A DNA stretch of 64,000 nucleotides from Candidatus Babeliales bacterium (GCA_963722075.1 CAVRJM010000001.1:1210864-1274863), one strand, 5' to 3'; shown: positions 5,767 through 61,453, counted from the first letter of the stretch. Numbers and translations: made by a program. The notes: a model not told the origin generated them from the letters alone.

Positions 5767-5830
5767 TATTGCAATTTGAAACTATAAAATAGTATAATTA
5801 TAGTAGCTATTTATCTGAAAAGGAGTTATT

Positions 5831-6448: not shown

Positions 6449-6473
6449 CCAATTACTATAAATGGAGTGTTGT

Positions 6474-7031: not shown

Positions 7032-7034
7032 AAA

Positions 7035-7063
7035 TTGACAAATAAGATAAAAAATTATATGAT
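7035..7063 (+). promoter_or_regulatory. putative sigma70-like promoter of ssrA (TTGACA-N17-TATGAT)
   Basis: The hexamers were read from the sequence about 30 nt upstream of the tmRNA 5' end. AT-rich background makes chance matches likely. Confidence 0.3.
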
Positions 7064-7092
7064 TATTGTTACTAAGAATCTTTGAAATATTT

Positions 7093-7517
7093 GGGGGCGT
7101 ACTGGCTTCGACGTGGTATCGATAGGTTAAAGAGCATGCCAAGTTTTGACTGAAAACTTGTAAAAGAATTGGTCGAAATATAAATGCAAACACTGTTAAA
7201 AGTGATGTTCCTGCAGCTTTATTTGGTTCAATCCAAAATTCAGTATTTGGTGCTCAAGCAGCAGCTTGTGCTTAATTACTGAATAGTTCAGGACACTTGT
7301 TAGCATAACGTGCTTATCAGCGGTGCTAACACGTATTACAAGAGATAAGACTTTCTCGCGTAGATTACATAATTTTGTAGCGAGAAAAAACACTAAATTA
7401 TCCTTACTTTCTATCTGTGTTTTCGAGGTGAAGTAACGGTATATTCGAAAACTGAGCATGGAGTACTTTAAGCTTGACATATTGCGGACATGGGTTCGAT
7501 TCCCATCGCCTCCACCA
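7093..7517 (+). ncRNA. ssrA: tmRNA (SsrA), one-piece
   Basis: The 5' end GGGGGCGTACTGGCTTCGACG pairs with the 3' end ...GGTTCGATTCCCATCGCCTCCACCA (acceptor stem, T-arm and CCA). An internal frame from GCA 7186 to TAA 7273-7275 encodes ANTVKSDVPAALFGSIQNSVFGAQAAACA. The resume codon is uncertain. Confidence 0.85.
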
Positions 7518-7564
7518 GTCTTCGCCCTTCGGGCTACGCCTGGCACGGCCAGTTTCTTTAGCGG

Positions 7565-26500: not shown

Positions 26501-29500
26501 CCAACAACGGTAGCTGCAACATATACCGTAAGCTTGCCTGCAAATGCGCCAACAACAGGCCAAGTATTGCAAGCAACATCACCAACAACACTCACCTGGG
26601 CATCGGTAGGCGGCTCACCAGCAATAGCAGAAACCTATTATGTTTCCCTTGCTGGTAGCGATAGTAATGATGGGTCTTTCTCGGCGCCATTTAGAACGGT
26701 AACTCATGCGGTGAACGTAGCTAATGGCGTAGCTAGTCTTGCTAATCCTATTGTTATTAATGTGGGTGCCGGTAATTTTGTTGAAAATAATACCGGTGGG
26801 CCAATTATTATTTCTGCTGATGGCATTAGTATTGTGGGGGCTACGCTTGTAGCTACTACCATTATACCAGCAAGTAGTACTGTCGATTTATTTCATATAA
26901 CAACAGGCAATGTTGAATTTCAAAATATATCATTGACGACACCGTTTCCTGGCTCTACAGCAAGTGCCGTTGTTATTACTATTTCGTCGGGGACGCCCCA
27001 ATTTAATACTATAACAGTGGGGCAATTCCAAATGGGATTTGACTTAAGCAGCTCAGTAATAACAAACATTCCTACTGTGGTATTTGAAAATATGCAATGT
27101 GCCGGTAATGGTACGAATATTATAGCTAATAATATCAATGCGGTGATTAAAAATTCTGTATTCCAAGGGCCATTATTCTTTGGGAGTGCAGCAAATAACG
27201 GCATTATATTAACAGGTGCAAACACACAAGCATTAATTTTAAGTTGCGCATTAAAATCATTTGACAATGCGCTACAAATTACCAACGCTGCACAAGCACG
27301 AATTCTCAGTGTTGATATTGAAAGCTCTACCACAGGCATTTTGTGCAATGGTGTATCAGATGCTTCAATTATTGGTTGTAATTTCTTTATCAATAATGCA
27401 AATTCGATCAACGTAAGTGTCTCAGGAGCAGGTACCAATATTACAGTAGAAGGTTCTCACTTTGAAGGATCTCTTGCGGGTGATACGCCATTGGGTACTG
27501 CACTTCAAGTAATTAATGGAGCAGTACTTTCAGTTGATTCTTGTGCTATCGAAAATGTTGCGGTAGGAATTCAATGTGGTAATCCGGGTGATACGGTTAC
27601 CACATTCTTAGAAGCAAGCGGTGTCGTTCTATCTGGCTGTACGGTAGATATTCAGCAAAATGGTGCTTCAAAACTTAATTTTTTTAGCGGCGTAGTTGAT
27701 ATCGATAAAACATTTATAAACGACCCAACCAATGTGAGTATTGCTGCATTTAATGATCAATCAGAATTAGTAATAGGGTCAGGAGCTAATACTGAACACC
27801 TGCTTTATGAGGTGCTTAATGGTCAAGTGCCAAGACCAAGTCTTACCTATGAGCCGGATTATTATGGAAAAATGGGTACGGTATTTGTAAATAGTAATAC
27901 GGGACAAACATTTAATGCAACGCAAGCACAAAGTGATAATGCTGCCTATTTTGTAATTACCGGCGATAACACTAAAGAAGCAGGACTTAATTTATTTTCA
28001 GATACTGCAAATTTTGGTGATCCAGATAATGTACGCGGGTGGGGAATCATAAAAACAGGGACATCTGCCGATTTAGCATTTACCTATACTAATAATGATT
28101 CGTCAGGACAAGCATTACGCGGTTCTAATACCGTGATGCAGCTCAATGGCTTTGATAATCAAGTAGAATTTCCTATTGCAACGAATGCACCATTGCCAAC
28201 TAATACGGTAGCAAAATTGATATGGGCTGGAGACACCGATTTATATCGCTCAACTACAGCAACGTTAGCAACGGATAGTAATTTTGTGGTTGCGCAGAAC
28301 GTAACCATTTCAAGTTTAACACCGGCTGGCGTAGTGCATAATGATAATACTGGTTTGCTTTCGACATCATTAATTGTAGACGCCGATATTAGCGCAAGTG
28401 CAAATATTGCTGATACAAAATTGGCAACGATTAGCACGCCCGGTAAAGTAGCAAATTCCGCTACTACAGCAACCAGTTCAGATGTGCCAAATACTATTGT
28501 GCTTCGCGATGGGTTAGGAAATTTTGAAACCAACATGATTACCATTGATGGAACTGTTAGTAATCCAACTGATGTTGCAACAAAGCAATATGTGGATAAT
28601 GCAGTAACAACCGGATTTGTGGTAAAGACAGCTGCTTTAGTGACCAGCACCGTTGATGTTGCCATTAGTGGGTTACAAACAGTTGATGGTGTGATGCTGA
28701 CCACCAGCGATCGAGTATTATTAGTTGGGCAAACAGATGGCGTAGAAAACGGATTATGGCTCGCTGAAGTAGGAAATTGGATGCGCCCAACTGATTTTTC
28801 TAGTGGTACTTCGGCTGGTAATTCATATGTACTTACCCTTTCAGGTACCGTAAATGGCGGGTCCAGTTGGATTTGTATTACGCCAACATCAATTATAGAT
28901 ACTAATACGATAGAATTTACTCAATTTGCATTAGCAAGCCAAACTACCGGCGCCAATGTGGGAGCAGGTACGGGGCAAGTGTTTCAAAGTAAAACCGGAA
29001 ATGTGTTGAATTTCAGAACACTTCTTGCCGGAACTCATATGGTAATAACAACTGACCCAAATGATGTAGCAATCGCAACTGATGCAACAAGCGCGAATAC
29101 ACCAAATACGCTTGTGGCGCGTGATGCCTCGGGAAATTTTGCTGCCGCGACTATTACGGCAAATTTATCGGGTAATGCTTCAACCGCAACATCCGCCACC
29201 AATTTTACCGGGGCGCTTGCTGGTGATGTTACTGGAACACAAGGAGCAACGGTGGTAAATTTTGTGGGTGGGCAAAGTGCAGCCAATGTTTCTTCAGCAA
29301 CGGTAGCAGCAAATGCAGCAACCAATTCTAATACACCAAATACGATCGTATTGCGCGATGGATCTGGTAATTTCTCAGCAGGCACGATTACGGCAAATCT
29401 CACCGGAAATGTTACCGGGAACTTAACTGGTAATGCCACAACTGCAACTAATGCAACGACGGCGGTAAATTTCAGCGGTTCGCTAAATGGAGATGTAACC

Positions 29501-31789
29501 GGAACGCAAGGCGCAACGGTAGTGAGCAACGTTGGTGGGCAAAGTGCTGCAAATGTAGCGGCAGCTACGGTGCTTGCAAGTGCATCCACAAGTGCAGATA
29601 CGCCAAGTACTATTGTGCGCAGAGATGCATCAGGAAATTTCTCAGCTGGTACAATCACCGCAAATTTAAATGGTAATGCAACCACCGCAACTACGGCAAC
29701 TACTGCAACAACTGCCGGATCGGCAATAAATTTTACGGGATCACTCAGTGGCGATGTAACGGGTACACAGGGAGCAACGGTGGTGAGTTTTGTTGGTGGG
29801 CAAAGCGCAGCAAGCGTAGCAGCAGCAACGACATTAGTTGGAACGGCAACGAGTAATAATATTCCAAGCACCTTAGTATTGCGTGATACATCAGGGAATT
29901 TTAGTGCCGGCACGATTACAGCGAATTTATCAGGGAATGCAACCACCGCAACAACTGCAACCAATTTTACCGGATCGTTATCGGGTGATGTAACGGGCAC
30001 GCAAAGTGCTACGGTGGTAAGTACCGTTGGTGGGCAAAGTGCAGCAAATGTTGCTTCAGCAACGGTGGCAGCAAATGCAGCAACCAATTCTAATACAGCA
30101 AACACCATTGTAAAACGTGATGCGTCAGGAAACTTTAGTGCTGACACAATAACGGCAAATTTAACAGGTAACGTGACGGGTAATTTAAGTGGTAATGCCA
30201 CCACGGCAACAACAGCCGGATCGGCAACAAACTTTACCGGATCACTTGAAGGAGATGTAACCGGAACCCAAGGTGCTACGGTAGTAAGTTCAGTTGGTGG
30301 GCAAACAGCAGCAAACGTGGCAGCAGCCACCGTGCTTGCCAATGCTGCAACCAACGCTGATACGCCAAGCACTATTGTACGCCGTGATGCATCAGGTAAT
30401 TTTAGTGCAGGTACAATTACTGCAAGTCTAAATGGTAATGCTACCACAGCAACCACAGCAACTAGTGCGACAACGGCAACTACCGCAACAAATTTCACTG
30501 GATCACTGAGCGGCGATGTAACGGGAACACAAGGTGCAACGGTGGTTAGTTTTGTGGGTGGGCAAAGCGCAGCAAGCGTAGCAGCAGCAACGTCACTGGT
30601 AAATACTGCTACCAGCAATAATGTAGCAAATACCATTGTAAAACGTGATGCATCAGGAAACTTTAGTGCTGGCACCATTACAGCAAATTTAACCGGTAAT
30701 GCAACCACTGCGACAACAGCAACCAATTTTAGCGGATCGCTATCAGGTGATGTAACGGGCACGCAAGGTGTAACGGTGGTAAGTACTGTTGGTGGGCAAA
30801 GTGCCGCCAATGTAGCATCAGCAACGGTGGCAGCAAACGCAGCAACGAATGCAGATACCGCAAGCACCATTGTAAAACGAGATGCATCAGGCAATTTTAG
30901 CGCTGGCACGATCACCGCAAATCTTACTGGTAACGTTACGGGGAATTTGAGCGGTAATGCAACCACGGCAACAACAGCCGGATCGGCAACAAACTTTACC
31001 GGCTCACTTTCAGGAGATGTAACCGGTACGCAAAGTGCAACGGTGGTCAGTTCAGTTGGCGGACAAAGTGCGGCAAATGTAGCAGCAGCTACCGTACTTG
31101 CCAATGCAGCAACAAGTGCTAATACGCCAAGTGCTATTGTGCGTCGTGATGCTTCGGGGAACTTCTCTGCGGGTGTTATTACGGCATCGCTTACGGGTGG
31201 TGTACTGACGGGGAATTTAACCTTGCCAGCAGGAACGGCAGCAGTGCCATCATTACAATTTTCAGGAAGTACTAATACCGGTATATCAGCACCGGCAGCA
31301 AATACGCTATCACTTGATACCAATGGCACCCAGCGGTTGAGTATTGATTCCACCGGAAGTGTTACGTACCATTCCAATTATAAAATGTATGCTTATTTAT
31401 CATCAAATCAAACTGTTAATGATACTACCGCAACGATTATTTTTAATACCGAATTATTTGATACCAATTCTAATTATAATAATACTACTGGTGTATATAC
31501 GGTACCAGTGACGGGAGTTTACCTAGTTGGCGTTACGGTGAATACCCAATCTTCTCATTCATCAGGTGCAACCCAAACGGTGAATATTGGACTAAACGGG
31601 ACAACTCCAATAACAGGAGCTTCTGTTTCACAAATTTCAAACTCAAGTGCTCAAAAATTGCCGATGACTTTATGCATATTGCTTTCATTAACGGCTGGCA
31701 ATACTATTCAAGTTCAATATACTACAAATCAGGACGATACGATTCAGTCGGGTGATACGCATTTGGCGATTCATTTTATGTCATTCTAA
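20573..31789 (+). CDS. giant secreted fibre-like protein (3,738 aa) with tail-fibre-like repeats, three beta-helix modules and a C1q/TNF-like C-terminal domain
   Basis: A single open frame of 11.2 kb with a Sec-like N-terminus. The PNTIVLRDGSGNF motif occurs 13 times. YYV..GSD.NDGSF.APFRTV.HAV...VGAGIF.ENN occurs three times. The C-terminal pattern IIFNTELFDTNSNYNNTTGVYTVPVTGVYLVGV...TAGNTIQVQY...HLAIHFMSF is C1q-like. Confidence 0.9.
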   Translation: MQFFLLILLTFFVSLYSEGSLKELSSQNSFIEIGVVRAPRPSTTEGGFIGLAGLFTTTPSITEIENIVFNSGFIQGPIASTIDAVPRFANTTGNLLKNSLVLVDDAGNITINGITKNGNTVSWPSIVGAAGTFLGSDGVGNLIYSTPVGSGNVSTALPFTTNDAITTVDILSGSHDIKQTSVTIDSSDNINGINSLNANVVNAPALNGNATSATTAGSFTGVLAGDVTGPQSATVVNFVGGQSAANVAAATVLANAATSSDVPNTLVLRDGSGNFETNMITIDGTVTNPTDVATKQYVDDAVLTGFVIKAPAVAYGASNITLSGLQTIDGVALNSNDRVLLNAQTNPVQNGLWLAQVGAWTRPADFASGTQAERSYVLITLGTVFEGSSWVCATPNAIIDTDPITFIEFSLPNQTTGANVGVGQGQIFQSKTGNTLNFRTILAGPHIVVTNDPNDVMISTDATNADTPNTIVLRDGSGNFSASTITAALTGAASLNVLKAGDTMTGNLNLALQSQLRLQDSTGSGSYVGLDAPAVVPVSYTVNLPASAPTTGQVLQATSPTALQWATVGGSTISEAYYVELSGSDANNGSFSAPFRTVAHAVNVANGVASLANPIVIHVGAGIFVENNSGGPITISADGISIVGSSNSGTTIVPTSLTNDLFNIAAANVEFDNFTISISNSTSTGNAITLSTSSAGLATFNTITIIGAFNNGFNLSTSVGSSSVAFNNILTGGCTTAISLNNMQCVIKNSLFQGSLTTTPANTGFSITGTNSIIYVLGSLLRLCNTALSITGGANIHVIGTTIESSINGIVANGGSIVEMVGDNFSFNSPSSINVFASGANTNVTVDGCQFACADMAGNSQGTAVQATNQGTILLVGSSIEYAVLGIQCGAVSDTSATSIRANATTLIGCTTDIQQLGSSTFRFVGGVFDVNKISIANATNVTFAAFDRTNNETLALGSNADTNQTLFEVLNAQPTLPYLQYMSNYYGAKGPVYVNPNADPTLNGVQAQSNNASYFVVTGDNTKQTGINLFSDTANFGNSDNIRGWGITKVGSSAALTFVYTNNDSSGQALRGSNTVMQLNGFDNQVEFPLATNAPLPTNTVAKLVWAGDTDLYRSAANTLQTDGNLVVGSLTPAGVVHNNNTGLLSTSLIVNADISNSAGITDNKLATISTPGKVANSATTATSANVPNTIVLRDGSGNFAAGTITASLIGAASLNVLKTGDTMTGNLLMANQSQLQFQDSTSGNYVAIDAPTTVAATYTVSLPATAPLSGQVLQATSPTTLTWASVGGSPAVAKTYYVALNGNDSNDGSFDAPFRTVAHAVSVANGVASSANPIEISIIGAGIFIENNSGGPITVTAEGINIIGSSNQATIIMPTTAANDLFSIVVPSAKFEAFQVALSGVGSTGNAVTYNAGPIGVVTIDRVAVNGSFNNAFAINATSGTPTIILNNILCGGCVNAISITNAQCVIKNSIFQGSLTASPANNGISITGTNAIVFCLSNVFKLFANAISVTGGASVRILGSNFESTTNGLAALGDSNLTIVGCNFILNNPSSINIAAAGANTAITVDGCQFQCNDATGNPQGTALKVTTGASILAVGSSITNAVVGIQCGTAGDANTTVMRANATTLIGCTTDIVQTSSSALFFIGGVFDSNKLSFANPANVSFSAFDRTNNDALTLGNDADTNQMLIQVLNGESLFPNWAYRSNYYGTKGVVYENQNSDATFNGVQAQSNNASYFVVTGNNAAQASINLLSDTANFGNPNSENVRGWSIVKTGTSADLAFTYTNNDSSDQALRGSNTVMQLNGFDNQVEFPIATNAPLPTNAVAKLVWAGDTDLYRSTTATLATDGNLIVGALTPAGVVHNSNTGLLSTSLIVNADISPAAGITDDKLATISTPGKVANSATTATSADTPNTIVLRDGSGNFAAGAITASLIGAASLNVLKTGDTMTGNLLMANQSQIQFQDSTSGNYVAIDAPTTVAATYTVSLPANAPTTGQVLQATSPTTLTWASVGGSPAIAETYYVSLAGSDSNDGSFSAPFRTVTHAVNVANGVASLANPIVINVGAGNFVENNTGGPIIISADGISIVGATLVATTIIPASSTVDLFHITTGNVEFQNISLTTPFPGSTASAVVITISSGTPQFNTITVGQFQMGFDLSSSVITNIPTVVFENMQCAGNGTNIIANNINAVIKNSVFQGPLFFGSAANNGIILTGANTQALILSCALKSFDNALQITNAAQARILSVDIESSTTGILCNGVSDASIIGCNFFINNANSINVSVSGAGTNITVEGSHFEGSLAGDTPLGTALQVINGAVLSVDSCAIENVAVGIQCGNPGDTVTTFLEASGVVLSGCTVDIQQNGASKLNFFSGVVDIDKTFINDPTNVSIAAFNDQSELVIGSGANTEHLLYEVLNGQVPRPSLTYEPDYYGKMGTVFVNSNTGQTFNATQAQSDNAAYFVITGDNTKEAGLNLFSDTANFGDPDNVRGWGIIKTGTSADLAFTYTNNDSSGQALRGSNTVMQLNGFDNQVEFPIATNAPLPTNTVAKLIWAGDTDLYRSTTATLATDSNFVVAQNVTISSLTPAGVVHNDNTGLLSTSLIVDADISASANIADTKLATISTPGKVANSATTATSSDVPNTIVLRDGLGNFETNMITIDGTVSNPTDVATKQYVDNAVTTGFVVKTAALVTSTVDVAISGLQTVDGVMLTTSDRVLLVGQTDGVENGLWLAEVGNWMRPTDFSSGTSAGNSYVLTLSGTVNGGSSWICITPTSIIDTNTIEFTQFALASQTTGANVGAGTGQVFQSKTGNVLNFRTLLAGTHMVITTDPNDVAIATDATSANTPNTLVARDASGNFAAATITANLSGNASTATSATNFTGALAGDVTGTQGATVVNFVGGQSAANVSSATVAANAATNSNTPNTIVLRDGSGNFSAGTITANLTGNVTGNLTGNATTATNATTAVNFSGSLNGDVTGTQGATVVSNVGGQSAANVAAATVLASASTSADTPSTIVRRDASGNFSAGTITANLNGNATTATTATTATTAGSAINFTGSLSGDVTGTQGATVVSFVGGQSAASVAAATTLVGTATSNNIPSTLVLRDTSGNFSAGTITANLSGNATTATTATNFTGSLSGDVTGTQSATVVSTVGGQSAANVASATVAANAATNSNTANTIVKRDASGNFSADTITANLTGNVTGNLSGNATTATTAGSATNFTGSLEGDVTGTQGATVVSSVGGQTAANVAAATVLANAATNADTPSTIVRRDASGNFSAGTITASLNGNATTATTATSATTATTATNFTGSLSGDVTGTQGATVVSFVGGQSAASVAAATSLVNTATSNNVANTIVKRDASGNFSAGTITANLTGNATTATTATNFSGSLSGDVTGTQGVTVVSTVGGQSAANVASATVAANAATNADTASTIVKRDASGNFSAGTITANLTGNVTGNLSGNATTATTAGSATNFTGSLSGDVTGTQSATVVSSVGGQSAANVAAATVLANAATSANTPSAIVRRDASGNFSAGVITASLTGGVLTGNLTLPAGTAAVPSLQFSGSTNTGISAPAANTLSLDTNGTQRLSIDSTGSVTYHSNYKMYAYLSSNQTVNDTTATIIFNTELFDTNSNYNNTTGVYTVPVTGVYLVGVTVNTQSSHSSGATQTVNIGLNGTTPITGASVSQISNSSAQKLPMTLCILLSLTAGNTIQVQYTTNQDDTIQSGDTHLAIHFMSF
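21359..21973 (+). repeat. module A, copy 1 (205 aa) of the giant gene
   Basis: PNTLVLRDGSGNFETNMITIDGTVTNPTDVATKQYVDDAV...DRVLLNAQTNPVQNGLWLAQVGAWTRPADF... It is repeated at 28487-29101 with the same length. Confidence 0.85.
21974..28486 (+). repeat. three tandem B units (721, 724 and 726 aa) of the giant gene
   Basis: Unit boundaries fall at 21974, 24137, 26309 and 28487. They were set by the in-frame PNTIVLRDGSGNF motif. The units are diverged but collinear. Confidence 0.85.
28487..29101 (+). repeat. module A, copy 2 (205 aa) of the giant gene
   Basis: PNTIVLRDGLGNFETNMITIDGTVSNPTDVATKQYVDNAV...DRVLLVGQTDGVENGLWLAEVGNWMRPTDF... Confidence 0.85.
29102..31126 (+). repeat. eight short tandem units (78/89/87 aa) with a 254-aa higher-order period
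   Basis: Counted unit lengths are 78,89,87,78,89,87,78,89 aa (675 aa, 2025 bp). The consensus is xxTIVxRDxSGNFSAGTITANLxGN..ATTAT..NFTGSLSGDVTGTQxATVVSxVGGQSAANVAxATV.ANAAT. Confidence 0.85.
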
Positions 31790-32399: not shown

Positions 32400-33125
32400 T
32401 TATTTTAAAATTGTTTGTTTGATTTCAAAAATTTTCTTAAAAAGTTCAAGGTCTTCTTGATGAGTAAATACAAAATATACTTTTTTAATGAAATGGTGCT
32501 TTCGTTGTGTTTCATTGATAATCGTCTTTATAGCAATTTCAGCGGCTTCTTGTTTGGGGAATCCATAAATGCCACTTGAAATAAAGGGGAAGGCTATAGA
32601 TTCATTCTCTTTATATTCCCCGGCAGATCGAAAGGCTTCTTGGTAACAATTAATTAAAATCTGCTGTGCCTGTTTTTTATCTGAATAAGCCGAATAAATA
32701 GGCCCCACCGCATGTACAATGAACTTAATGCCGTAATTAGCTTCTAAATTAAAACTCGGTGTTATAACGGCTTCTCCTGGCTCTATGCCTTTAGGAAAAT
32801 GAGTTTTAATATATTCTTCTAGGGCGTGTGTTTTGCCTTGTGCAGCTTCAAAAATGGCGCCACAAACGCCGCCACCAGGTAATAGGTATTTATTGGCTGC
32901 ATTTACAATAGCATCAATTGGCAACGTAGTAATATCTTTTTTGATCAATACAAAAGTAACCTTATTGATAATGAATTCATACTGATTAGCTGGTTGCGCT
33001 GTTGAGGCAACGGATTGGTGTTGAATAAGATATTCAGGATCTTTATGATGAAGTGCAAAATCAGGAAGAATGGCATGAGCGGTTTTAAATAAATGCAAAA
33101 AGAAAATAAATGTTAAAGATTTCAT
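32400..33125 (-). CDS. macro domain protein (ADP-ribose binding/hydrolase family) with signal peptide
   Basis: The macro-domain signature AIVNAANKYLLPGGGVCGAIFEAAQG and the later FPFISSGIYGFP are present. The N-terminus MKSLTFIFFLHLFKTAHA is Sec-like. Confidence 0.8.
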   Translation of the reverse strand: MKSLTFIFFLHLFKTAHAILPDFALHHKDPEYLIQHQSVASTAQPANQYEFIINKVTFVLIKKDITTLPIDAIVNAANKYLLPGGGVCGAIFEAAQGKTHALEEYIKTHFPKGIEPGEAVITPSFNLEANYGIKFIVHAVGPIYSAYSDKKQAQQILINCYQEAFRSAGEYKENESIAFPFISSGIYGFPKQEAAEIAIKTIINETQRKHHFIKKVYFVFTHQEDLELFKKIFEIKQTILK

Positions 33126-33249: not shown

Positions 33250-34563
33250 TTGATTATTGATTATGCGAGCTCTTTAGTGCCAATAGCGGACTGCAAAAAA
33301 CGGTTTGATACGTTATTGCCTGAAATTAATATCTGTAAAAAGATTATACAAGATCTTGATTATTCTTCTGGATATTCGTTTCTTAACTTGCCGCAACAAA
33401 ACATAAAACCGATTATAGAAACAATTAATCAAAAAAAAGCATTAAAGCCGTCACTGCTCATTGTTATAGGTATTGGTGGGTCAAATTTGGGAACATTGGC
33501 GGTGCAGGAAGCATTATATGGAAAATTATATAATGATAGTAATCCAGAAATAAAAATATATTATGCCGATACGGTTGATACAGAATATATGACCGCTTTA
33601 CTAACGATAATGGAAAGCTACTTATCTCAACAAAAAGTAATCTTATTAAACGTGGTAACTAAATCAGGAACTACTACCGAGACGGTTGCCAATTTTGAGG
33701 TATTACTGGAGGTATTAATTAAATACTATCCAACTAATTATCGTGATCATGTAGTAGTAACAACTGATAAAGATTCATTATTGTGGAATAAAACAATGGA
33801 AGAAGGATATACGCTTCTAGAGATACCACGCTTTGTTGGTGGTCGTTATTCAGTATTAAGCGTCGTTGGTTTATTTCCATTGGGGATGATCGGATGCGAT
33901 ATACAACAATTGCTCGCTGGGGCTCAATCGATGCTTGATCGATGTACTTCTGCTACTTTTGAAGAAAATAAGGCGGCAACTACCGCAACTATTATGTATG
34001 AACAATATAAGCAATGCATTACAATACAAGACATGTTTTTATTTGTACTACAATTGGAAGGCTTGGGAAAATGGTATCGACAATTAATGGGTGAAAGTAT
34101 CGGCAAAGAATTTGATAAGCATGATAATAAGGTTGAAATCGGCATAACGCCTACGGTGTCAATTGGTTCAATTGATTTACATTCGGTGGGACAACTTTAT
34201 TTAGGTGGTCCACATGATAAAAATAGTACTTTTGTTTCAGTCGAAAAGCACAAGAATAATCTTCTGGTACCAGCTGATGCTTCATTTGATACCTTGGTTC
34301 CGGGCATTAATAATAAATCTTTTGCTGAAATTATGGATGCTATTTTGCAAGGCGTAAAAAAGGCATACCAAAAGCAACGAAGACCATTCATATCGATAAC
34401 ATTATCTGAATGCAATGAGTATTATATAGGTCAATTTTTACAATATAAAATGATAGAAATGGTGTATTTAGGTTACTTACTCAATATAAATCCTTTTGAT
34501 CAACCAAACGTAGAATTATATAAAAAAGAAACGCGTACCATTTTAAATAAAACAATTGTTTAA
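33250..34563 (+). CDS. pgi: glucose-6-phosphate isomerase (short bacterial/archaeal type)
   Basis: 437 aa. Motifs include IGIGGSNLGTLAV, VVTKSGTTTETVANF, GGRYSVLSVVGL and GQLYLGGP. The start is an apparent TTG. Confidence 0.85.
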   Translation: MIIDYASSLVPIADCKKRFDTLLPEINICKKIIQDLDYSSGYSFLNLPQQNIKPIIETINQKKALKPSLLIVIGIGGSNLGTLAVQEALYGKLYNDSNPEIKIYYADTVDTEYMTALLTIMESYLSQQKVILLNVVTKSGTTTETVANFEVLLEVLIKYYPTNYRDHVVVTTDKDSLLWNKTMEEGYTLLEIPRFVGGRYSVLSVVGLFPLGMIGCDIQQLLAGAQSMLDRCTSATFEENKAATTATIMYEQYKQCITIQDMFLFVLQLEGLGKWYRQLMGESIGKEFDKHDNKVEIGITPTVSIGSIDLHSVGQLYLGGPHDKNSTFVSVEKHKNNLLVPADASFDTLVPGINNKSFAEIMDAILQGVKKAYQKQRRPFISITLSECNEYYIGQFLQYKMIEMVYLGYLLNINPFDQPNVELYKKETRTILNKTIV

Positions 34564-34679
34564 GTGTTTAAATTATTGCATACCCTTTATCTAACGATAT
34601 ACTCTTTTAATATTAAACAGGGCAAATGCATTAATGTTAAATATTTAAGCTAAAAAAATTAAAAAGTTTAATTTTTAAT

Positions 34680-34757
34680 CTGGATCCCCACGCTGCGCTC
34701 GGGACGACGATAGTGGAAAACAAAAGACGTTGTTGCGAGCTTGTCGAAGCAATCCAG
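34680..34757. repeat. GC-rich palindromic intergenic element (copy C, permuted arm order)
   Basis: CTGGATCCCCACGCTGCGCTCGGGACGAC-N20-GTTGTTGCGAGCTTGTCGAAGCAATCCAG. It lies between pgi and zwf. Confidence 0.65.
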
Positions 34758-34845
34758 CATTCTATTTAAACCTTTTGAATTCGATACTTTAAATGCGTTT
34801 ACACCCTGGTACTAATCATTAATTATTTGCAAAAATGAGTTTTGT

Positions 34846-36264
34846 ATGGGTAATACGGGAATAACTAATAACGATGGTTTATTTATACTATTTGGTGCTA
34901 CGGGTGATTTATCAAAACGACGAATTCTTCCAGCATTGTATGCATTAAGTTTTCAACATAAAATAGGAAACATTTCTATAATCGGGGTAGGGTTAGAAGA
35001 CCGCTCTTCTTTAGAAGTAATAAATGCAAGTAAGCAGTATATTGAACATCTGGATTCGGCACATTGGGCAGCTTTTGAATCTAGATTTTTTTACTATCAA
35101 ATGGATATAACAAAATCAACTGAATTTCAACAATTTAAACAATTTATTGAGCATCATGAAAAAGAGCATTCTTTTTTGGGTAATCGGTTGATATATTTAG
35201 CAGTTCATCCCAAATTTTTTGCGCCCATAACGCAACAACTAGCGCAAATAAATCTTATCCAAAAAATGGCAAACTTGTCTGATACACCTTGGTGCCGCGT
35301 TGCATATGAAAAACCGTTTGGCCTTGATAAAAAATCTGCTCATGAAATAAATGAAACCATCGCGCATTATTTGCAAGAATTTCAGATATTTCGAGTTGAT
35401 CATTATCTAGCCAAGGATATTATTGGCACTTTAGCTTTGCTACGCTTTACCAATTGCATTTTTGAGCCATTGTGGAATCATGAGCATATTGATTGGATTG
35501 AAATTGCATTAAGTGAGACAGTTGCAATGGGTGGTAGAGGTACTTTTTATGACGCCTGTGGTGCGCTTAAAGATGTAGTGCAAAATCATATGTTGCAAAT
35601 TGTTGCCTTACTTGCGATGGAAGCTCCTGAATTCTTGAGTGGTGATTACATTCGTGAACAAAAATCACTCATTTTAAAAAAAATTGAGCCTGTGGATGGT
35701 TTTCTGGCGCAATATGATGGATATAGAGTTGAAGATGGGGTAAGGCCCAATTCAACTACCGAAACCTTTGCAGCACTTAAATTATTAATTCATACACCGC
35801 GATGGAAAGATGTTCCGTTTTATTTAAGAACGGGCAAAGCATTAAACAAAAAAGAAACTATTATTACTATTCAATTTAAACCAGTTACCTGCTTATTAAG
35901 TACCAATTGCCCCAGCAATGCTGATTACCTTTCTATAAGAGTAATGCCTGAACCAGGATTTTCTATTATGTTAAATGTTAAAAAACCGGGTATGAAAATT
36001 GAAGTGATGCCAGTTGAAATGGATTTTTGTTATGAATGTAAATTTGGCGAAATACCCGAAAATGTATATCAACTAGTACTACAAGAATTATTTATAGGCG
36101 AACAAGGGATATCGGTGCGCTTTGATGAAGTTGAGCGTGCTTGGGAGATCATTGATAAGGTAAAAAAATTATCATTACCATTGTATCATTATGAAAAAGG
36201 CACTCAAGGGCCACGAGAATTGTATGAATTTGCTCAAAAAAATAAAATGAAATGGCGATTATGA
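34846..36264 (+). CDS. zwf: glucose-6-phosphate 1-dehydrogenase
   Basis: Motifs FGATGDLSKRRILPALY (NADP site), EKPFG and RVDHYLAKD (active-site RIDHYLGKE equivalent). Confidence 0.9.
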   Translation: MGNTGITNNDGLFILFGATGDLSKRRILPALYALSFQHKIGNISIIGVGLEDRSSLEVINASKQYIEHLDSAHWAAFESRFFYYQMDITKSTEFQQFKQFIEHHEKEHSFLGNRLIYLAVHPKFFAPITQQLAQINLIQKMANLSDTPWCRVAYEKPFGLDKKSAHEINETIAHYLQEFQIFRVDHYLAKDIIGTLALLRFTNCIFEPLWNHEHIDWIEIALSETVAMGGRGTFYDACGALKDVVQNHMLQIVALLAMEAPEFLSGDYIREQKSLILKKIEPVDGFLAQYDGYRVEDGVRPNSTTETFAALKLLIHTPRWKDVPFYLRTGKALNKKETIITIQFKPVTCLLSTNCPSNADYLSIRVMPEPGFSIMLNVKKPGMKIEVMPVEMDFCYECKFGEIPENVYQLVLQELFIGEQGISVRFDEVERAWEIIDKVKKLSLPLYHYEKGTQGPRELYEFAQKNKMKWRL

Positions 36265-37162
36265 AAATTGGTATTATTGGGCTGGGTAAAATGGGCAATG
36301 TGCTGGTGTATCGCTTAAAAAAAGCACACTTTGAAGTGGTGGGATTTGACCCTCAATTAAAAGCCCGTACTGCTATTAATAAATATGGTGCAAGCACTGT
36401 TTCTTCGATCGAAATGATTTCTGCGCATGCGCGCATTATATGGTTGATGGTGCCAGCTGGGGCCGCGGTTGATGCTGTTTTAAAAGAATTAGAGCCGCAT
36501 TTAAAAAAGGGCGATATTATTATCGATGGTGGTAATAGTTACTTTAAAGATTCAATAAAACATGCGCAGCAATTAAAAAAAAGGGAATTCATTTTATTGA
36601 TTGCGGCACTTCTGGTGGTCTTGCAGGTAAGAAAAAGGGTTTTTCCTTAATGATAGGAGGAGATGAAAAAATTTTTAATTATCTAGAGCCACTCTTTAAA
36701 GCATTAGCTGCTCCTAAGGGATATGGGTATATGGGCGATTCAGGTGCAGGGCATTACGTTAAAATGGTACATAATGGTATTGAGTATGCATTATTACAAG
36801 CATACGCAGAAGGATTTCATTTATTAAAAAATGGTTCTTATAAGGATTTAGATTTAGAAAAAATAACCGGCGTATGGGACCATGGTTCCATTATTCGTTC
36901 GTGGATTTTGCATTTGGCTCATGATATTTTTAAAAAAGATCAGCAATTGAAAGATGTGGTAGGCATAATACAGGAGAGTGGTATGGGGCAGTGGACGGTG
37001 GATGAAGCGCATGAAAAAAAGATTCCCGTAAAGCTAATCGAAGATGCTTTAACAATTCGTGCATGGTCACGTGAAACTGGTGGTGATTATGCTACTAAAG
37101 TGGTTGCCTTACTGCGGCATGCTTTTGGCGGACATGCAATAACAAAAAGGAAAAAGAAATGA
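36261..37162 (+). CDS. gnd: 6-phosphogluconate dehydrogenase (short YqeC/Gnd-like), reading frame interrupted at an A8 run
   Basis: The track splits it into 36252..36650 and 36650..37162. The N-part reads MKIGIIGLGKMG...IIDGGNSYFKDS and the C-part reads MIGGDEK...GAGHYVKMVHNGIEYALLQAYAEG. Reading one extra A at 36575-36582 gives LKKKGIHFIDCGTSGGLAGKKKGFSLMIGGDE. Confidence 0.8.
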
Positions 37163-39255: not shown

Positions 39256-39993
39256 ATGAAAAAAATTGCTATTATTATTGGCTGCATATTAGTAATTACC
39301 ATACAGGCGAGCTTTCTTTCTGAATCTTTGATAGGTAAAAAAGAAAAAAATGAACTACAAAAGCTTCCTCTGCCCCATTATGAATCAAAAAAGTTTGATT
39401 TACAGGCAACATTGAAGGGTTTTAGCAAAAAACAAATTGACGAGCATAAAGAGCTGTATCAGGGATATGTTAATAAAAGAAATGAAATAACAGAGCGCTT
39501 ACAAGATGCTGATCGCTCACCTGCCAATAAAAGTTATTCATCATTCAGAGCTCTTAAGACCGCTGAAACGTTTGCTATGAATGGTGACATTTTACATCGT
39601 TTATATTTTCAAAATATGGGATCAACGGGCAAGAAAATAGGCCCAAAAACAGAAGAATATATTATAAAAAATTTTGGTTCTGTAGGTGCCTTCAAAGAGG
39701 ATTTGTTTGCTACTGCTAAAGCAGCACGCGGCTGGGCGGTAACTGCCTTTACTCCCGATGATGGACGCATTAATAATTTTCTTTTTGATACGCATAATCA
39801 AAAAGTTCCTGCACTTGCTATACCTATTTTAGTTCTTGATGTGTATGAACATGCATATATGATCGATTTTGGCATTAAAGTAGTCTCTTATCTAGATGTT
39901 TTTTGGGATAATATTAATTGGGACGTTATAGAACAACGCATGAATTTCATCGATAAGTACCATAATGTATGGAGCGAATATTTTATTGATTAG
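39256..39993 (+). CDS. Fe/Mn-family superoxide dismutase with signal peptide
   Basis: The metal-ligand context is conserved: IDEHKELYQGYV, NGDILHRLYF and LDVYEHAYMIDFG (the DVWEHAYY equivalent). The N-terminus MKKIAIIIGCILVITIQA is Sec-like. Confidence 0.8.
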   Translation: MKKIAIIIGCILVITIQASFLSESLIGKKEKNELQKLPLPHYESKKFDLQATLKGFSKKQIDEHKELYQGYVNKRNEITERLQDADRSPANKSYSSFRALKTAETFAMNGDILHRLYFQNMGSTGKKIGPKTEEYIIKNFGSVGAFKEDLFATAKAARGWAVTAFTPDDGRINNFLFDTHNQKVPALAIPILVLDVYEHAYMIDFGIKVVSYLDVFWDNINWDVIEQRMNFIDKYHNVWSEYFID

Positions 39994-40576
39994 TACCTGA
40001 ATCGTCTTTACAGCAAATCTTTAATAGTTGATGAGCCCATAACATTCTTTGGTCTCTAAAACTTTCATGACAATTAGGGCAGTTGAATATACTTTCATGC
40101 TTATGGTTAAAAATATGTTCATCGAATAGGGTCTGTTTGTAAAATTGTTTGGCACAGTAATGACAGACCTGTAATTTTCTTGTGGGCATAGTTTTTGTAG
40201 GTTTTTTGTATTTTCTTTTTGGCTTTGTTTGTGAAGCTACTTTCTTATTGGACGTTTTATTAATAATTAGTTTATTAACTGTTAGAATATGAGTCTTTTT
40301 TAGAATTGTGTCATTGAAACAGTTTGTTGATTGAGGTGATGGAGTTATAGTTTGATTTGATTTATTTTGTAACGGTCCAGTTGCAATGGGACTCAACATA
40401 GAATCATTTTGAATTGAAACCGGAGTTTGTGAGGGTACTGTAAAATCACTTAGAAATGGTAATAATGTAGCATCTTCTACCTTTTCTGCATCAGGAAATT
40501 CGTAAATCCAGGTTAAATTATCCATTGCTTCAAGATAACCGATAAAAAAGATTAGTATAAAAAAATTTTTTTTCAT
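39983..40576 (-). CDS. secreted protein with two eukaryote-type C2H2-like zinc fingers and a basic NLS-like patch
   Basis: It has a signal-like N-terminus. The basic patch is KPKRKYKKPTKTMPTRK. Finger 1 is C-x2-C-x12-H-x3-H (CHYCAKQFYKQTLFDEHIFNH). Finger 2 is CPNCHESFRDQRMLWAHQLLKIC. Confidence 0.7.
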   Translation of the reverse strand: MKKNFFILIFFIGYLEAMDNLTWIYEFPDAEKVEDATLLPFLSDFTVPSQTPVSIQNDSMLSPIATGPLQNKSNQTITPSPQSTNCFNDTILKKTHILTVNKLIINKTSNKKVASQTKPKRKYKKPTKTMPTRKLQVCHYCAKQFYKQTLFDEHIFNHKHESIFNCPNCHESFRDQRMLWAHQLLKICCKDDSGTNQ

Positions 40577-40715
40577 AATTACTTATTCCTTATTAAATTT
40601 AATTCTTAATAATGATACTGTTTTTTACAAAAAATTCCATTTGTTGTTTTTTATGAACGGTTTTTGCTAATATAATATATGTAAATTTATATTTGCAATT
40701 AAAGGAAAGAAGAAT

Positions 40716-41270
40716 ATGAAATTAATTAAGTATATTTTTTTTACATATATATTATTACTTAGCTTTTTTATTAAGGCATCAGAAGTCAATATTAATGGTT
40801 TAAAATCTAAAAATGCTAAAATTACCGAGAAAGTTGAATTAATTTCACGTAAAAATGTGACCGAAATATTGAAACTTGGATTTCCGAGATTTTATGAATT
40901 ATTAGGCAAAACGGGATATCTTCCAGCTTTAGAAGGTGCTAACGCTGTTACGATATTTGCCCCAACCGATGATGCGGTGAAAAAATTAAATGACATTTTT
41001 GGTGGAAAAGAGGCATTTAATAGGATTTTTGGTACTTCCGAAGGTATAGAAAAATTAAAAAAGATAGTGCGATTACATATTGCTCCTGATACTACGATGG
41101 CAGCAGATATTATGGAAATGAGTTCCATTCAGCCTTTTGGGGGTGGGAAATTGAATTTAAAAACCAAAAATGGTGTTATAACCATTAACGATAGCTCCGC
41201 AGTAATTCAAGCAGACATTTTAGGTAGTAATGGCGTAGTTCATGCAATTGATGCGGTAATTATGCCTTAA
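40716..41270 (+). CDS. fasciclin (FAS1) domain protein, secreted
   Basis: TIFAPTDDAVKKL, HIAPD and NGVVHAIDAVIMP are FAS1 hallmarks. It has a signal-like N-terminus. Confidence 0.8.
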   Translation: MKLIKYIFFTYILLLSFFIKASEVNINGLKSKNAKITEKVELISRKNVTEILKLGFPRFYELLGKTGYLPALEGANAVTIFAPTDDAVKKLNDIFGGKEAFNRIFGTSEGIEKLKKIVRLHIAPDTTMAADIMEMSSIQPFGGGKLNLKTKNGVITINDSSAVIQADILGSNGVVHAIDAVIMP

Positions 41271-42793: not shown

Positions 42794-43204
42794 TTACATT
42801 ACTGTTGGAAAAAATTGCTTAATTTCTATAAGTGCATTTTCTGAAGAATCAGATCCGTGCACCACATTAAAATCAATCGATTCACCAAAGAGCTTACGCA
42901 AAGTACCTGGTTCAGCTTTTAAGGGGTCAGTAGCTCCCATAAAATCACGCCATGCTTTAATAGCGTTATCCTTTTGCAATACCAAAATAATGGCAGGGCC
43001 CATGGTAACGTTAGAAACTAAGTTAGGAAAAAAAGGCTTTTCTTTATGAATTGCATAGAATTGCTCAGCTTGTTTTTTAGATAAATGGATCTTCTCCATT
43101 GCTAAAATTTCAAAGCCATTTTTTTCTATAAGATCAATAATAGCGCCTGTTTTTTTACCGGTAACGGCATGTGGCTTAATAATTGCTAAGGTTTTCTCTA
43201 TCAT
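42794..43204 (-). CDS. ndk: nucleoside diphosphate kinase (cytoplasmic)
   Basis: 136 aa. Motifs LAIIKPHAV, RDFMGATDP and NVVHGSDS. Confidence 0.9.
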   Translation of the reverse strand: MIEKTLAIIKPHAVTGKKTGAIIDLIEKNGFEILAMEKIHLSKKQAEQFYAIHKEKPFFPNLVSNVTMGPAIILVLQKDNAIKAWRDFMGATDPLKAEPGTLRKLFGESIDFNVVHGSDSSENALIEIKQFFPTVM

Positions 43205-49147: not shown

Positions 49148-50253
49148 AATAAATAAAAAAGGGTGCTTCAATTTTGTGAATTAAACAACAAAAGCAAAAA
49201 AGAAGGACACCCGAAATGAGAATAACAAATACAAATGAAGAATCAAGCACACCAAAATATGTAATGGGTTTATTAAAAACAACGGCACGAAAAGTTTGCA
49301 CAAATATTTCTGAAACACTGGGAATAATGCATGATGTGCTCAATAGGGAAGTTGAAAAAGCAGCCCAGAATGCAGCAGAAATAACAAGCTCATTACAAAA
49401 TGTTGCTCTAGAAAGTCTTAGCAATTGCGAAAGATATTTGATAATCGATGATACTCCCGTAAATAAGCAATATGCTAACGATATTGAAGGATTAGAAATT
49501 GTTTATGATAGTAGTGAGAAAAGATCAGCTTTGGGATTACGGTCTGTAATTGGCATGATCACTGATACCAGAGTAAGAATACCGATTGATGCGGAGATTA
49601 TGATAAGCAAAGTATTTGGAGAAACCAATTACAAGACAAAAAGTGAAATTGCTTACATTATTATAGAGCGTGTTCTAGGATCAATTCGGTTTAATTGGTT
49701 AATTGCAGATGCCCATTATGCGACTGAATACCTTCTGCCAAAGCTTTTTAACAGGTCAATAAAATTTCTGATGAAAATTCCCAGAAATCGCGTTGTTACT
49801 ATTAACAATAAAACAGGACAATTGCAAAAAATTTTACGTTTGAAAAAAAATAACAGATTTGCTTGTGGATACGGCACTATTTTTGGTCTTTCCTGTTATT
49901 TCTATGTGTTAAAAATTGATAAGGAAAAAATTATGTATCTTATCAGTAGCCATCAGCTCGGCAAAGAGAAGCTAATTTCTACATATAAGATTCGTTGGCA
50001 AATTGAATGCTTCAATAGAACTGCCAAACAACTTCTTGGATTCAGCGAATGCCAAATGCGTTCTTTTAACATGCAGCGTGCGCATTTACTTTTCGTGTTA
50101 TGGGCTTATGCTTTAGCCGACATAAGGCGGGTAAAAGATAATTTCGACAATACTGAACAAGCTGTCAGATCCTTTCGGGTCGCAAAACCCCCTACACCAT
50201 CTAGTTTATTTTATGCTTTTAAAGAGAACTCTTATGCTCTTGCGTAAGTCCTG
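49107..50253 (+). mobile_element. insertion sequence related to IS-a (copy IS-c)
   Basis: The terminal inverted repeats (CAGGACTTACGCA ... TGCGTAAGTCCTG) match those of IS-a. The flanking hexamers differ (ATTTAA vs TGAGGA), so there is no target-site duplication. Confidence 0.7.
49216..50247 (+). CDS. DDE transposase, IS4 superfamily (diverged paralog of 9498..10523)
   Basis: 343 aa. The Y-x2-R-x3-E-x6-K signature is present as YKIRWQIECFNRTAK. Confidence 0.85.
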   Translation: MRITNTNEESSTPKYVMGLLKTTARKVCTNISETLGIMHDVLNREVEKAAQNAAEITSSLQNVALESLSNCERYLIIDDTPVNKQYANDIEGLEIVYDSSEKRSALGLRSVIGMITDTRVRIPIDAEIMISKVFGETNYKTKSEIAYIIIERVLGSIRFNWLIADAHYATEYLLPKLFNRSIKFLMKIPRNRVVTINNKTGQLQKILRLKKNNRFACGYGTIFGLSCYFYVLKIDKEKIMYLISSHQLGKEKLISTYKIRWQIECFNRTAKQLLGFSECQMRSFNMQRAHLLFVLWAYALADIRRVKDNFDNTEQAVRSFRVAKPPTPSSLFYAFKENSYALA

Positions 50254-50976: not shown

Positions 50977-51313
50977 TTAATCACCAATTTATTAACGATA
51001 GTAATTATTTTTTTTCGAATTATTGGATCATCAATGTAACGGCTTCTATTATTTTGCGAAGGCCGAATATTTATCATAGAATCAAATTCTATCCAATCTT
51101 CAGAGGTTTTGAGGGGATAAATATTTATCCCCCAGAGATTTTCTTGTTGAGAGCCCATTTCTAATAGGAGTTCTTCTTGATCTGCATGAAGTCTGCATCA
51201 ACAACCATGATTTCTTTTTCAATATCAACAACAGCCTTTACCAAGTTGTTAAACATTTTGGATGCCATTGGCTTTAATTCTTCTAAGGAAATAGGTTCCT
51301 TGACAATATGCAT
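50973..51313 (-). pseudogene. DUF5674-like gene with a 1-nt frameshift
   Basis: The N-part (read by eye) is MHIVKEPISLEELKPMASKMFNNLVKAVVDIEKEIMVVDAD. The alternate frame continues LHADQEELLLEMGSQQENLWGINIYP...FDSMINIRPSQNNRSRYIDDP, which is the track ORF 50973..51158. The shift lies near 51185 and is not in a homopolymer. Confidence 0.6.
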
Positions 51314-57958: not shown

Positions 57959-58156
57959 TTATATAGATTTTTTACAGCCAGAGCAGCTTTTACAACTTTG
58001 TCTACAATCAGAAGCTGCTGCTAAATTTTTTGAATTAATATTTTTGCGTATTTCTGAAATTTTTTTATCAGAATGTGCTAATCGTTCAGTTACTGAAGCG
58101 CGAATTTGCGCAGTGAAGATTAAAGTAATTGCTGTTAATAGTAATGTATTGTTCAT
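57959..58156 (-). CDS. small secreted peptide with Cys-rich C-terminus (paralog 2)
   Basis: It has a signal peptide, then SVTERLAHSDKKISEIRKNINSKNLA, then the tail SDCRQSCKSCSGCKKSI. The core DNA is nearly identical to 57178-57250. Confidence 0.5.
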   Translation of the reverse strand: MNNTLLLTAITLIFTAQIRASVTERLAHSDKKISEIRKNINSKNLAAASDCRQSCKSCSGCKKSI

Positions 58157-58778: not shown

Positions 58779-58934
58779 TTATTTTTTTGTAGTTCTACAA
58801 TCTTTGCAGTTATTCTTACCATGTTTACAGTGACCTGCTAGAACATTTTTTGTTGGATCGGTTTGTTTTTGGGTAGTTAGGGAATGGGCTGATATCATGA
58901 TGCATACTAGCGCTAGGAATAATGTCTTTTTCAT
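58779..58934 (-). CDS. small secreted Cys-containing basic peptide (51 aa)
   Basis: Below the track cutoff and read by eye: MKKTLFLALVCIMISAHS-LTTQKQTDPTKNVLAGHCKHGKNNCKDCRTTKK*. It shares the NCKDCR motif with 57105..57347. Confidence 0.35.
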   Translation of the reverse strand: MKKTLFLALVCIMISAHSLTTQKQTDPTKNVLAGHCKHGKNNCKDCRTTKK

Positions 58935-59006: not shown

Positions 59007-61453
59007 CTACTTGATTGCAATTTTTGCTTTATATACTTCCTGATCTTTAACTAATAGTGATTCAGAAAGATCTGAAATCTGATAATGTATCATTTCTGCT
59101 TGCGTTACCCCTTTAATAAGTTGTTCTAAGGGAGCTAAAGCATCCAATTTTTTTTGTTCAGCGCTGTAAATTTCGAGTGCTTTTAAAGGTGTTTTTAATG
59201 ATAGTTGCTGTGCAGTTTTTAATGTACGAACTTCACTAATTACTTGTAACGCAATGGTCATTGTTAGTGCGCTTGCTTCAAAGGTATATGCTCGTTGATC
59301 AAATTCAGTATTATGAATAGATGGATTTTTTATGGTTGATTTATATAGTTCTTGATAAATCGCTTCGGTAATATATGGTATGTACGGTGCAAATGGTTGC
59401 AATATATTCAATCCTACCGTATAAAGCGTCCATCGGGTACCAGCAATTTCTTGTGGTGAATACAATTCTGGTTTGAATAACTGTTCCTTAATTATTTCAA
59501 TATAATTATCACAAAAATCGTTCCAAAAAAACTGCTCAATAGCATCAAGCGCTAAGCTAAATTCATACTCATCAAAATAATGTCTGTAATTTTTAAAACA
59601 AAGCGTCTTTTGATGTAACAGCCATTCATTAGCTGCACCTAAATATGCCGGTTGCTCAGTAGGAATATCGCGCATATGTTCATGAATAAAACGAAATGCA
59701 TTCCATAATTTTGTAATAAGGCGTTGACCAATTTTGAGTTGATTTTCTGAAAATGCAACATCGCTGCCCAATCGTCCAGATGCTGTCCAATAACGGATAA
59801 CATCTGCTGGATATTGTTCTAGCAATTGTTCAGGAGCTAAGCGAGCATTTTCTTTTGATTTTGATAACTTTTCTTTTGCGTCACTTAATACGTGACCAGA
59901 AATAACAATCGTACGCCAAGGAATTTGTTCATAATGCATCCAAGATTTTACGACGGTGTAAAATGCCCAGGTGCGAATAATATCATGCGCTTGGGGCCGC
60001 ATACTCATGGGTATAAATTCTTTAGCCGCGTCTCCAAACGGGCTTTCTTGCGGATTATATAATGAAAAACAAAGTTGTGGTGTTAATGAAGAAGTGTTCC
60101 AGGTGTCCATTACATCAGTATCTGGTTCAATAATACTGCTTTGGCAGGTAGGGCAATTTGCAGTATATGCTGTTTCTTGCGGATCAATAGGCAGCTGTTT
60201 TTCATCTGCTAAAATGACATGCCCATTATTACAATGCCAAGCTGGAAATGGGATACCATAAAAGCGTTGACGCGATAAGCACCAATCCCAACTTAATGAT
60301 TCAACCCAATTAACATAACGTGACCTCATAAAATGTGGGAACCATTCTATTTGATCAGCAAGCTCAATAAAATTCTTTTTATAAGGAAGAAGCTCTAAAA
60401 ACCATTGTGTTAATGCTAAATATTCAATCTCTTTTTTGCAGCGTTCGTGTACATTTACGGTATGCATAATTGGTTTTTGATTGAGCAATTTACCGTGCTC
60501 TTTAAGCTCAGCTAATACCTTTTCTCGTGCTTGGTGTACTTTTAACCCAGCTAAAATACCGGTATCTTCATTCCACCGGCCATCTTTACCAATTGATGGT
60601 TTATACGGTAAGTTATACTTTTTAATCCACTGAATATCTGTTTTATCGCCAAAGGTACAACACATTACCAACCCAGTTCCTTTTTCAATAGACACTGCAT
60701 CATCGGCTAAAATAGGAACCGTATAATTATAGAGCGGGACAATTGCTTTTTGCCCAGCCAGGTGCTGGTAACGGGGATCATGAGGATTATAAAAAAGCGC
60801 TACACAGGAAGGTAGCAATTCAGGTCGGGTAGTTCCCACAATAAGCGGACTACCATCAGCAGCGCTGAATGCAATATCATTAAAAAAAGATGATTTCTCT
60901 ACATCGTCCAATTCTGCTTGCGCGACTGTGGTGCGGCAGGTGGTACAATATAGAGCTGGTTCATGTTTACGATAAATAAAGCCTTTTTTATATAAGGCGA
61001 TAAATGATTCTTGTGAGATTCTTCGCGATCTAGTATCAATGGTGGAATAGCTTAACTGCCAATCAACAGAAAGTCCCATCCGTTGCCACAAGCTTTTAAA
61101 TTGTTCTTCAACTTCATGCGTTTCGAGTAAGCACAGTTGAATAAACTCTGAGCGCTTCATAGCATGGGCGCTTATTTCTTTTTTTTCTCTACAAATCGTT
61201 CAGTCGGTAGACCGTTATCATCAAAACCAAAGGGATAAAAAACAGAAAAACCGGTCATTCGTTTATAACGAGCTATAATATCGGTTTGTGTATAAGAAAA
61301 AATATGCCCTATATGTAAAGATCCTGACACCGTTGGTGGTGGGGTATCAATGCTGTAGGGAGGCTTATCAGCGGATGCTTTGTAAATATGCTCCTTATCC
61401 CAAAGCTCATTTATTTTTATTTCATATTTTTTATTATCGTACTGTTTTTCCAT
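59007..61453 (-). CDS. valS: valine--tRNA ligase, reading frame interrupted at an A8 run
   Basis: The N-part (61172..61453) carries PPPTVSGSLHIGH (HIGH motif) and GFDDNGLPTERFVEKKKK*. The C-part (59007..61160) carries the class I core with KLSKSK (KMSKS). One extra A in the run at 61179-61186 gives ...ERFVEKKKEISAHAMKRSEF... Confidence 0.85.

Follow-up and report, generated by a model that had tools for sequence, protein, structure and literature searches.

A one-base break at an A8 run splits valS in a Candidatus Babeliales assembly, probably through a homopolymer undercount

The gene of valyl-tRNA synthetase (ValRS), valS, is split in the deposited sequence of a Candidatus Babeliales bacterium at a run of eight adenines. 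We have analyzed 64,000 nucleotides around this gene (GCA_963722075.1, CAVRJM010000001.1:1210864-1274863; this whole stretch is called the window below), and we consider it probable that the split is a sequencing or assembly undercount of nine adenines (A9) as eight (A8) and not a biological event. A real deletion compensated during transcription or translation is the alternative that deserves the most detailed discussion, and we regard it as unlikely.

The break in valS

A first-pass annotation of the window had described valS as divided at an A8 run into a short piece carrying the HIGH motif and a large remainder carrying KLSKS, and both the sequence and the ORFs agree with that description. 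The features involved are the following.

61172-61453, minus strand: 5' piece of valS, 93 aa, with the HIGH motif (SLHIGHIF) and the C-terminal end ...ERFVEKKKK followed by a stop
61179-61186, minus strand: A8 run at which the valS frame breaks, T8 on the plus strand, exactly 8 A; one additional A restores the frame
61175-61195, minus strand: interval that must hold the single-base frame change, bounded by the stop codons of the two frames
59007-61160, minus strand: 3' piece of valS, 717 aa counted from the first ATG, with the KLSKS motif (KEKLSKSKE)

At the break the minus strand reads ...CGA TTT GTA GAG AAA AAA AAG AAA TAA GCG CCC ATG CTA TGA..., and the frame of the 717-aa piece is open upstream up to the A run. 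Within this 3' piece there is a second A8 run (59148-59155), which is in frame. Adding a single A yields an unbroken ValRS of 815 aa with the junction ...PTERFVEKKKEISAHAMKRSEFIQL... (in a longer stretch, ...PTERFVEKKKEISAHAMKRSEF...); the peptide across the junction of the full-length enzyme is FVEKKKEISAHAMK, and the C-terminus of the stub is FVEKKKK. When the restored 815-aa protein was compared with the window by tblastn, two HSPs in frames -1 and -3 were found abutting at residues 90-93, which bears out the earlier statement that A9 joins both pieces seamlessly. No second valS-like sequence was found in the 64-kb window by the same search, again as had been reported. The lesion is a one-base change of homopolymer length, whose correction gives a full-length conserved protein with no other defect. 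Placing the missing base in the A8 run is a choice by run length and not a proof, since an extra A in the AAA at 61175-61177 also restores the frame, giving EKKKKIS (compare VEKKKKVS in P0027). The A8 run is the most probable site of the missing base, but not the sole possible one.

Conservation of ValRS and of the junction in relatives

The restored ValRS matched the valine--tRNA ligases of Dependentiae/Babeliales (TM6), which are 815-830 aa long, with 60-75% identity over 100% of the length, indicating that the organism is a member of the Dependentiae; its genome is reduced (~1.4 Mb, ~35% GC). More than 100 ValRS matches were full length and the sole split entry was the 717-aa piece of the window itself, on a contig of 1,418,565 bp. 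The nearest homologue other than this one was 75% identical along its entire length. In an alignment of 16 sequences the junction was colinear, with V88, E89, K90 and K91 invariant, and the alignment of homologues showed no further lesions in valS and no substitutions at invariant positions. A match over the whole length with these four residues invariant indicates that the agreement of two reading frames with one protein is not due to chance. With one lesion in a gene that is otherwise intact and colinear with more than 100 homologues, the first-pass judgement that true inactivation is unlikely holds.

We have also examined the orthologous position in related Dependentiae loci, each of which has one intact valS. 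In about half of 30 orthologous loci the VEKK codons include GAA AAA AAA, an in-frame A8, and one locus (L010) has an in-frame A9 at the orthologous position (GAA AAA AAA AGA). This part of valS is a natural long A tract and would be a hot spot for base-calling error and for real slippage alike. The frameshift was found in no relative (all of the more than 100 homologues were full length and the 30 orthologous loci were in frame), the comparison being with other species and not with conspecific strains.

Other broken genes in the window

Every A8/T8 run of the window (n=30) was tested for restoration of a long ORF by a change of length. Only two of them restored one, those of valS and gnd, and both need a change from 8 to 9. 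Besides, a Pfam survey of ~55 ORFs of the window revealed a third frameshift correctable by +1, in a DUF5674 gene and away from any long homopolymer, which the first-pass annotation had not recorded.

36252-37162, plus strand: gnd (6PGDH-like), split at the A8 run 36575-36582; restored protein of 303 aa
50973-51313, minus strand: DUF5674 gene with the third single-base deletion, lesion at 51176-51199, GATGCAGAC^TTCATGCAGATC, halves in different frames

The two pieces of gnd match the Pfam domains NAD_binding_2 and 6PGD, and the restored protein covers positions 1-154 of the 161 of NAD_binding_2 plus 6PGD. Its frame is restored equally well by one more G in the adjacent GGG. This gene sits in a pgi-zwf-gnd cluster (33250-37162). 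In the case of the DUF5674 gene, one additional base yields a protein of 113 aa that matches positions 2-109 of the 109 of the Pfam model (E 1.9e-37), where the match had covered 53-109 before, and the lesion lies between two copies of ATGCAGA, beside a GATC. Each of the three lesions amounts to the loss of a single base from the intact frame, and the one in DUF5674 fits a consensus prone to deletions, although this gene could be a genuine pseudogene. Several other pairs of ORFs that were considered as split genes (1461/1735, 7011/7196, 42217/42794, 54052/54610, 57105/57349 and 58417/58779) turned out to be separate genes, tandem paralogues of nucleoside-diphosphate kinase (NDK), or spurious ORFs opposite the tmRNA gene.

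Lengths of A/T runs in the window and in relatives

The window contains 184 A/T runs of length 6, 67 of length 7, 30 of length 8 and none of 9 or more. In order to have a reference, we used 32 related Dependentiae loci (L001-L032; 597 kb), mostly from Illumina MAGs plus three nanopore MAGs. There we found 302 runs of length 8, 50 of length 9 and 2 of length 10, with none of 11 or more, so that runs of at least 9 represented 14.7% of the runs of at least 8 (52/354). Most of these longer runs (37 of the 52) were in frame inside ORFs of at least 100 codons. From these values 5.6 runs of at least 9 are expected per 64 kb, 4.0 of them coding, and the window has none. A binomial model gives a probability of 0.0085 for finding 0 of 30, and a beta-binomial one, which allows for variation between genomes, gives 0.021. 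With 4.0 coding A9 runs expected, two broken genes are nothing unusual (Poisson 0.15).

No housekeeping gene was broken at any of the 354 runs of at least 8 in the relatives. Compared with the 2 of 30 broken runs of the window, this gives a Fisher p = 0.006, which indicates that the breakage at runs of 8 is specific to this assembly. Five frameshift candidates at runs of at least 8 did appear among the relatives. Four of them were adjacent unrelated genes (ybeY with an ankyrin gene, an unknown gene with rsmE, EamA with NlpC/P60) or a strand mismatch (L007), and the fifth was not a housekeeping gene but an IS5-like transposase. The halves of this transposase (L023, 8817-8825) join via an A9 run (...ATLKKKDQALGRSRGG...), and this junction is probably where the IS element undergoes programmed frameshifting or slippage.

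The absence of runs beyond 8 is weakened as a stand-alone proof of artefact because the runs of Illumina and nanopore relatives also fall steeply after 8-9, and we have recast the argument as a quantitative deficit of runs of at least 9. Actually, a single relative locus of 22 kb may lack them altogether (L017, for example, has 14 runs of 8 but nothing beyond), so that the missing tail in the window is suggestive (P ~0.02) and not overwhelming. The steep fall in A/T runs after 8-9 is found across the phylum whatever the assembly method, a pattern that fits selection against slippage-prone tracts.

A homopolymer undercount as the probable cause

The first-pass annotation had pointed to the parallel between valS and gnd, with the same run length and the same sign of correction, as the mark of a shared mechanism or a shared artefact. 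The parallel is supported, and it is the second of these options that the evidence favours, since the window has no runs of 9 or more, both breaks go from 8 to 9, no housekeeping gene of the relatives is broken in this way and the frameshift is not conserved. We infer that the DNA has the base and that the consensus lacks it. The genomic site would be GAG AAA AAA AAA GAA (A9) within an intact valS, the deposited consensus being one base short; the same undercount would have struck an A9 of gnd, in an assembly that would carry at least one more single-base deletion (DUF5674). The split gene would be the product of sequencing, base-calling or polishing at the homopolymer length limit of the method, and the organism would make a normal ValRS of 815 aa. 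If A9 is written as A8, a single cause would explain why the A9 class is missing, why two genes are broken and why both corrections have the same sign.

The signature is systematic, with no runs of at least 9 in the window, several genes broken and corrections of the same sign. A single contig of 1.42 Mb spans paralogous genes that share 274 nt at 100% identity, together with long internal repeats, which suggests that long reads or finishing were used. In long-read consensus sequences the errors that remain are typically homopolymer indels that fragment genes, and even for R10.4 nanopore data the accuracy at the level of the reads falls at lengths 8-9, bins below ~40x needing polishing (PMC9262707). 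On the other hand, three relatives derived from nanopore data (L001, L002 and L006) do hold in-frame A9 runs, so that undercalling at 9 is not universal for nanopore. It also has to be considered that the phylum is host-dependent, with reduced genomes, and that tolerated real poly(A) frameshifts have precedent (PMC3017870).

Alternative explanations

The change from A9 to A8 might be real in the genome, with ValRS still produced through slippage of the RNA polymerase or through a -1 shift of the ribosome on A_AAA_AAG; as said above, we hold this to be unlikely. The wider version, in which the A8 alleles of both the essential valS and gnd are real and kept out of frame while full-length enzymes arise by polymerase and/or -1 ribosomal slippage, appears to us slightly more doubtful. 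The lesion does affect a poly(A) tract, the gene is essential and otherwise intact, and the lineage is AT-rich and host-associated, with a genome of ~1.4 Mb; single indels in poly(A/T) tracts are found in dnaX, dnaG and pth of Blochmannia (PMC3017870), where earlier work, as cited in that paper, gave ~30% of full-length (corrected) transcripts. Insertions during transcription cluster in A/T runs (PMC5574713). However, a tract of 8 is shorter than the 9-bp RNA:DNA hybrid and than the documented tracts (at least 9; 9-12; PMC3017870), the slippage described in bacteria takes place on 9 consecutive A or T (PMC5009743), and a transcriptome survey at genome scale found no restoring slippage in pseudogenes of Buchnera (PMC5574713). 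As for the ribosome, a point that the first-pass annotation did not make is that the phase of the 0 frame at valS (G AGA AAA AAA AAG) provides an in-phase A_AAA_AAG heptamer; the one at gnd is A_AAA_AAA. A -1 shift at the valS heptamer gives ...EKKKEIS..., a protein identical to that of an A9 transcript, and in E. coli few heptamers are as prone to shift as A_AAA_AAG, although when free of stimulators such heptamers shift there at only 2-10 times a background of 0.055% (PMC4066793). As stimulators we looked for an SD-like sequence upstream of the site, for a stable hairpin or pseudoknot 5-9 nt downstream of it, or for both. No SD-like element was found upstream of the valS heptamer, and downstream there is one small hairpin.

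61151-61172, minus strand: small hairpin AGCGC...GCGCU, beginning 6 nt after AAG; stability not significant

Compared with shuffled sequences, the stability of the downstream fold had z = -1.6 for valS (79 nt; 15 of 200 shuffles did as well) and z = +0.13 when the site was included (81 nt), with z 0.0 for gnd, and we do not take this hairpin as a frameshift stimulator, its stability not being significant. Besides, in 32 intact genes of the window we counted 6 in-phase A_AAA_AAG, 16 in-phase A_AAA_AAA and, on the sense strand, 11 A8 runs, including one in another part of valS, which implies that unstimulated shifting must be rare here. Rescue by slippage also has to accommodate a frameshift that is absent from all relatives, and it leaves the absence of runs of at least 9 in the window unexplained. 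An evolved, programmed recoding site that set the level of expression of valS and gnd would account for the presence, in one window, of two genes whose A8 sites are both in a slippery phase; we give this idea hardly any weight, as the two-frame layout is seen in 0 of more than 100 homologues and 0 of 30 orthologous loci and significant stimulatory elements were not found at either site. A true, recent pseudogene, with ValRS supplied by a second copy elsewhere in the 1.42-Mb genome or by the host, seems very improbable. Dependentiae are heavily host-dependent, our view is confined to 64 kb of the genome and the DUF5674 gene is broken too, but valS has a single lesion, keeps its invariant residues and is 75% identical throughout to its nearest full-length homologue; moreover the window has no second valS and the related loci have one intact copy each. 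We know of no bacterium that imports ValRS from its host. Fragment complementation is tolerated by class I synthetases such as IleRS, and some synthetases are split in nature, for example the LeuRS of Aquifex. A ValRS made of two polypeptides could be imagined along these lines, translation stopping at the TAA after 93 aa and re-initiating 11 nt downstream at the ATG 61160, with reassembly of the fragments. That the ATG lies directly downstream of the stop speaks for it, but no relative has the split, six residues of the conserved context (EISAHA) would be lost, no recognisable ribosome-binding site precedes this ATG, and an exact one-base fix in a homopolymer indicates a very recent or artefactual indel and not an evolved split. 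We judge this possibility to be extremely remote, slightly more so than the pseudogene.

Other features of the window

The window contains other features that we describe here for their own sake.

7093-7517, plus strand: tmRNA gene (Rfam 149.5 bits), with a predicted, unusually long tag of 29 aa, ANTVKSDVPAALFGSIQNSVFGAQAAACA
7011-7546: spurious ORFs opposite the tmRNA gene
12024-15419 and 15582-19367, plus strand: tandem paralogues of 1131 and 1261 aa with beta-helix and WD40 domains
20573-31789, plus strand: giant ORF of 3738 aa
42217-42741 and 42794-43204, minus strand: two tandem nucleoside-diphosphate kinase genes, one with an N-terminal extension of 39 aa
9498-10523, 10712-11836 and 49216-50247: three DDE transposase genes
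3740-7031, 7565-8671, 32400-33125 and 39983-41270: effector-type or eukaryote-like domains (three ankyrin-repeat proteins, Fic, macro, C2H2 zinc finger, fasciclin)
57959-58156 (65 aa) and 58779-58934 (51 aa), minus strand: small ORFs with signal-peptide-like N-termini and Cys-rich, basic C-termini

The beta-helix/WD40 paralogues share stretches of 95-100% DNA identity (12831-13104 is the same as 16284-16557), which suggests a recent duplication or gene conversion. Pfam recognised nothing in the giant ORF apart from a C1q domain at its C-terminus; repeats of ~2166 nt and ~261 nt occur within the ORF, whose GC content is 0.39-0.45, against 0.33 in its surroundings. The set of effector-type domains is typical of protist-associated bacteria, and the two small ORFs may represent a family of small secreted peptides.

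Implications

If the split of valS is an artefact, genes in this genome record are probably fragmented by some dozens of one-base deletions (from 3 in 64 kb one would extrapolate to roughly 60 in 1.42 Mb), which would be concentrated at runs truly 9 or more bases long. The valS, gnd and DUF5674 genes should then be annotated as intact, and inferences about metabolism or essential genes drawn from this assembly would need frameshift-aware correction. If, on the contrary, the deletion is real, an aminoacyl-tRNA synthetase could be maintained through decoding infidelity in a protist-associated bacterium, which would be of moderate interest for the fields of recoding and genome reduction, the rescue mechanism itself being already known. 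Rescue of the Buchnera and Blochmannia type would then be known from a new phylum and for an aminoacyl-tRNA synthetase, at a tract that does not reach the length of the RNA:DNA hybrid.

Comparison with known systems

Frameshifts in poly(A) tracts of Buchnera and Blochmannia are reportedly rescued by transcriptional slippage, a finding attributed to Tamas et al. in 2008. The present case resembles these endosymbionts (Williams and Wernegreen, 2010; PMC3017870) in having a frameshift at an A tract within an otherwise intact and essential information-processing gene, in a reduced, AT-rich and host-dependent genome. It differs in that their genomes have more than 100 coding tracts of at least 9, with frameshifted tracts of 9-12, whereas here the tract is of 8 and the window has none of 9 or more. 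Besides, some of their frameshifts are kept between populations or species, and the one in valS is shared with no relative. The -1 frameshifting of the dnaX/IS type on A_AAA_AAG uses the identical heptamer in the correct phase, and in valS the shift would likewise lead to a full-length conserved protein. However, in valS we found neither an upstream SD-like sequence nor a significant downstream structure, the overlap is not conserved, and while both products are functional in dnaX and IS elements, the 0-frame product of valS is a stub of 93 aa. As regards the homopolymer errors of long-read or flow-based sequencing (Sereika et al., 2022; PMC9262707; IDEEL-type tests), one of the three lesions found here, that of DUF5674, lies outside a long homopolymer, and in our case the error is a probable one. 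In everything else the pattern is alike, with a deletion of one base in the longest homopolymer class, a gene that is otherwise intact, several genes hit with corrections of the same sign and a run-length spectrum that is cut off.
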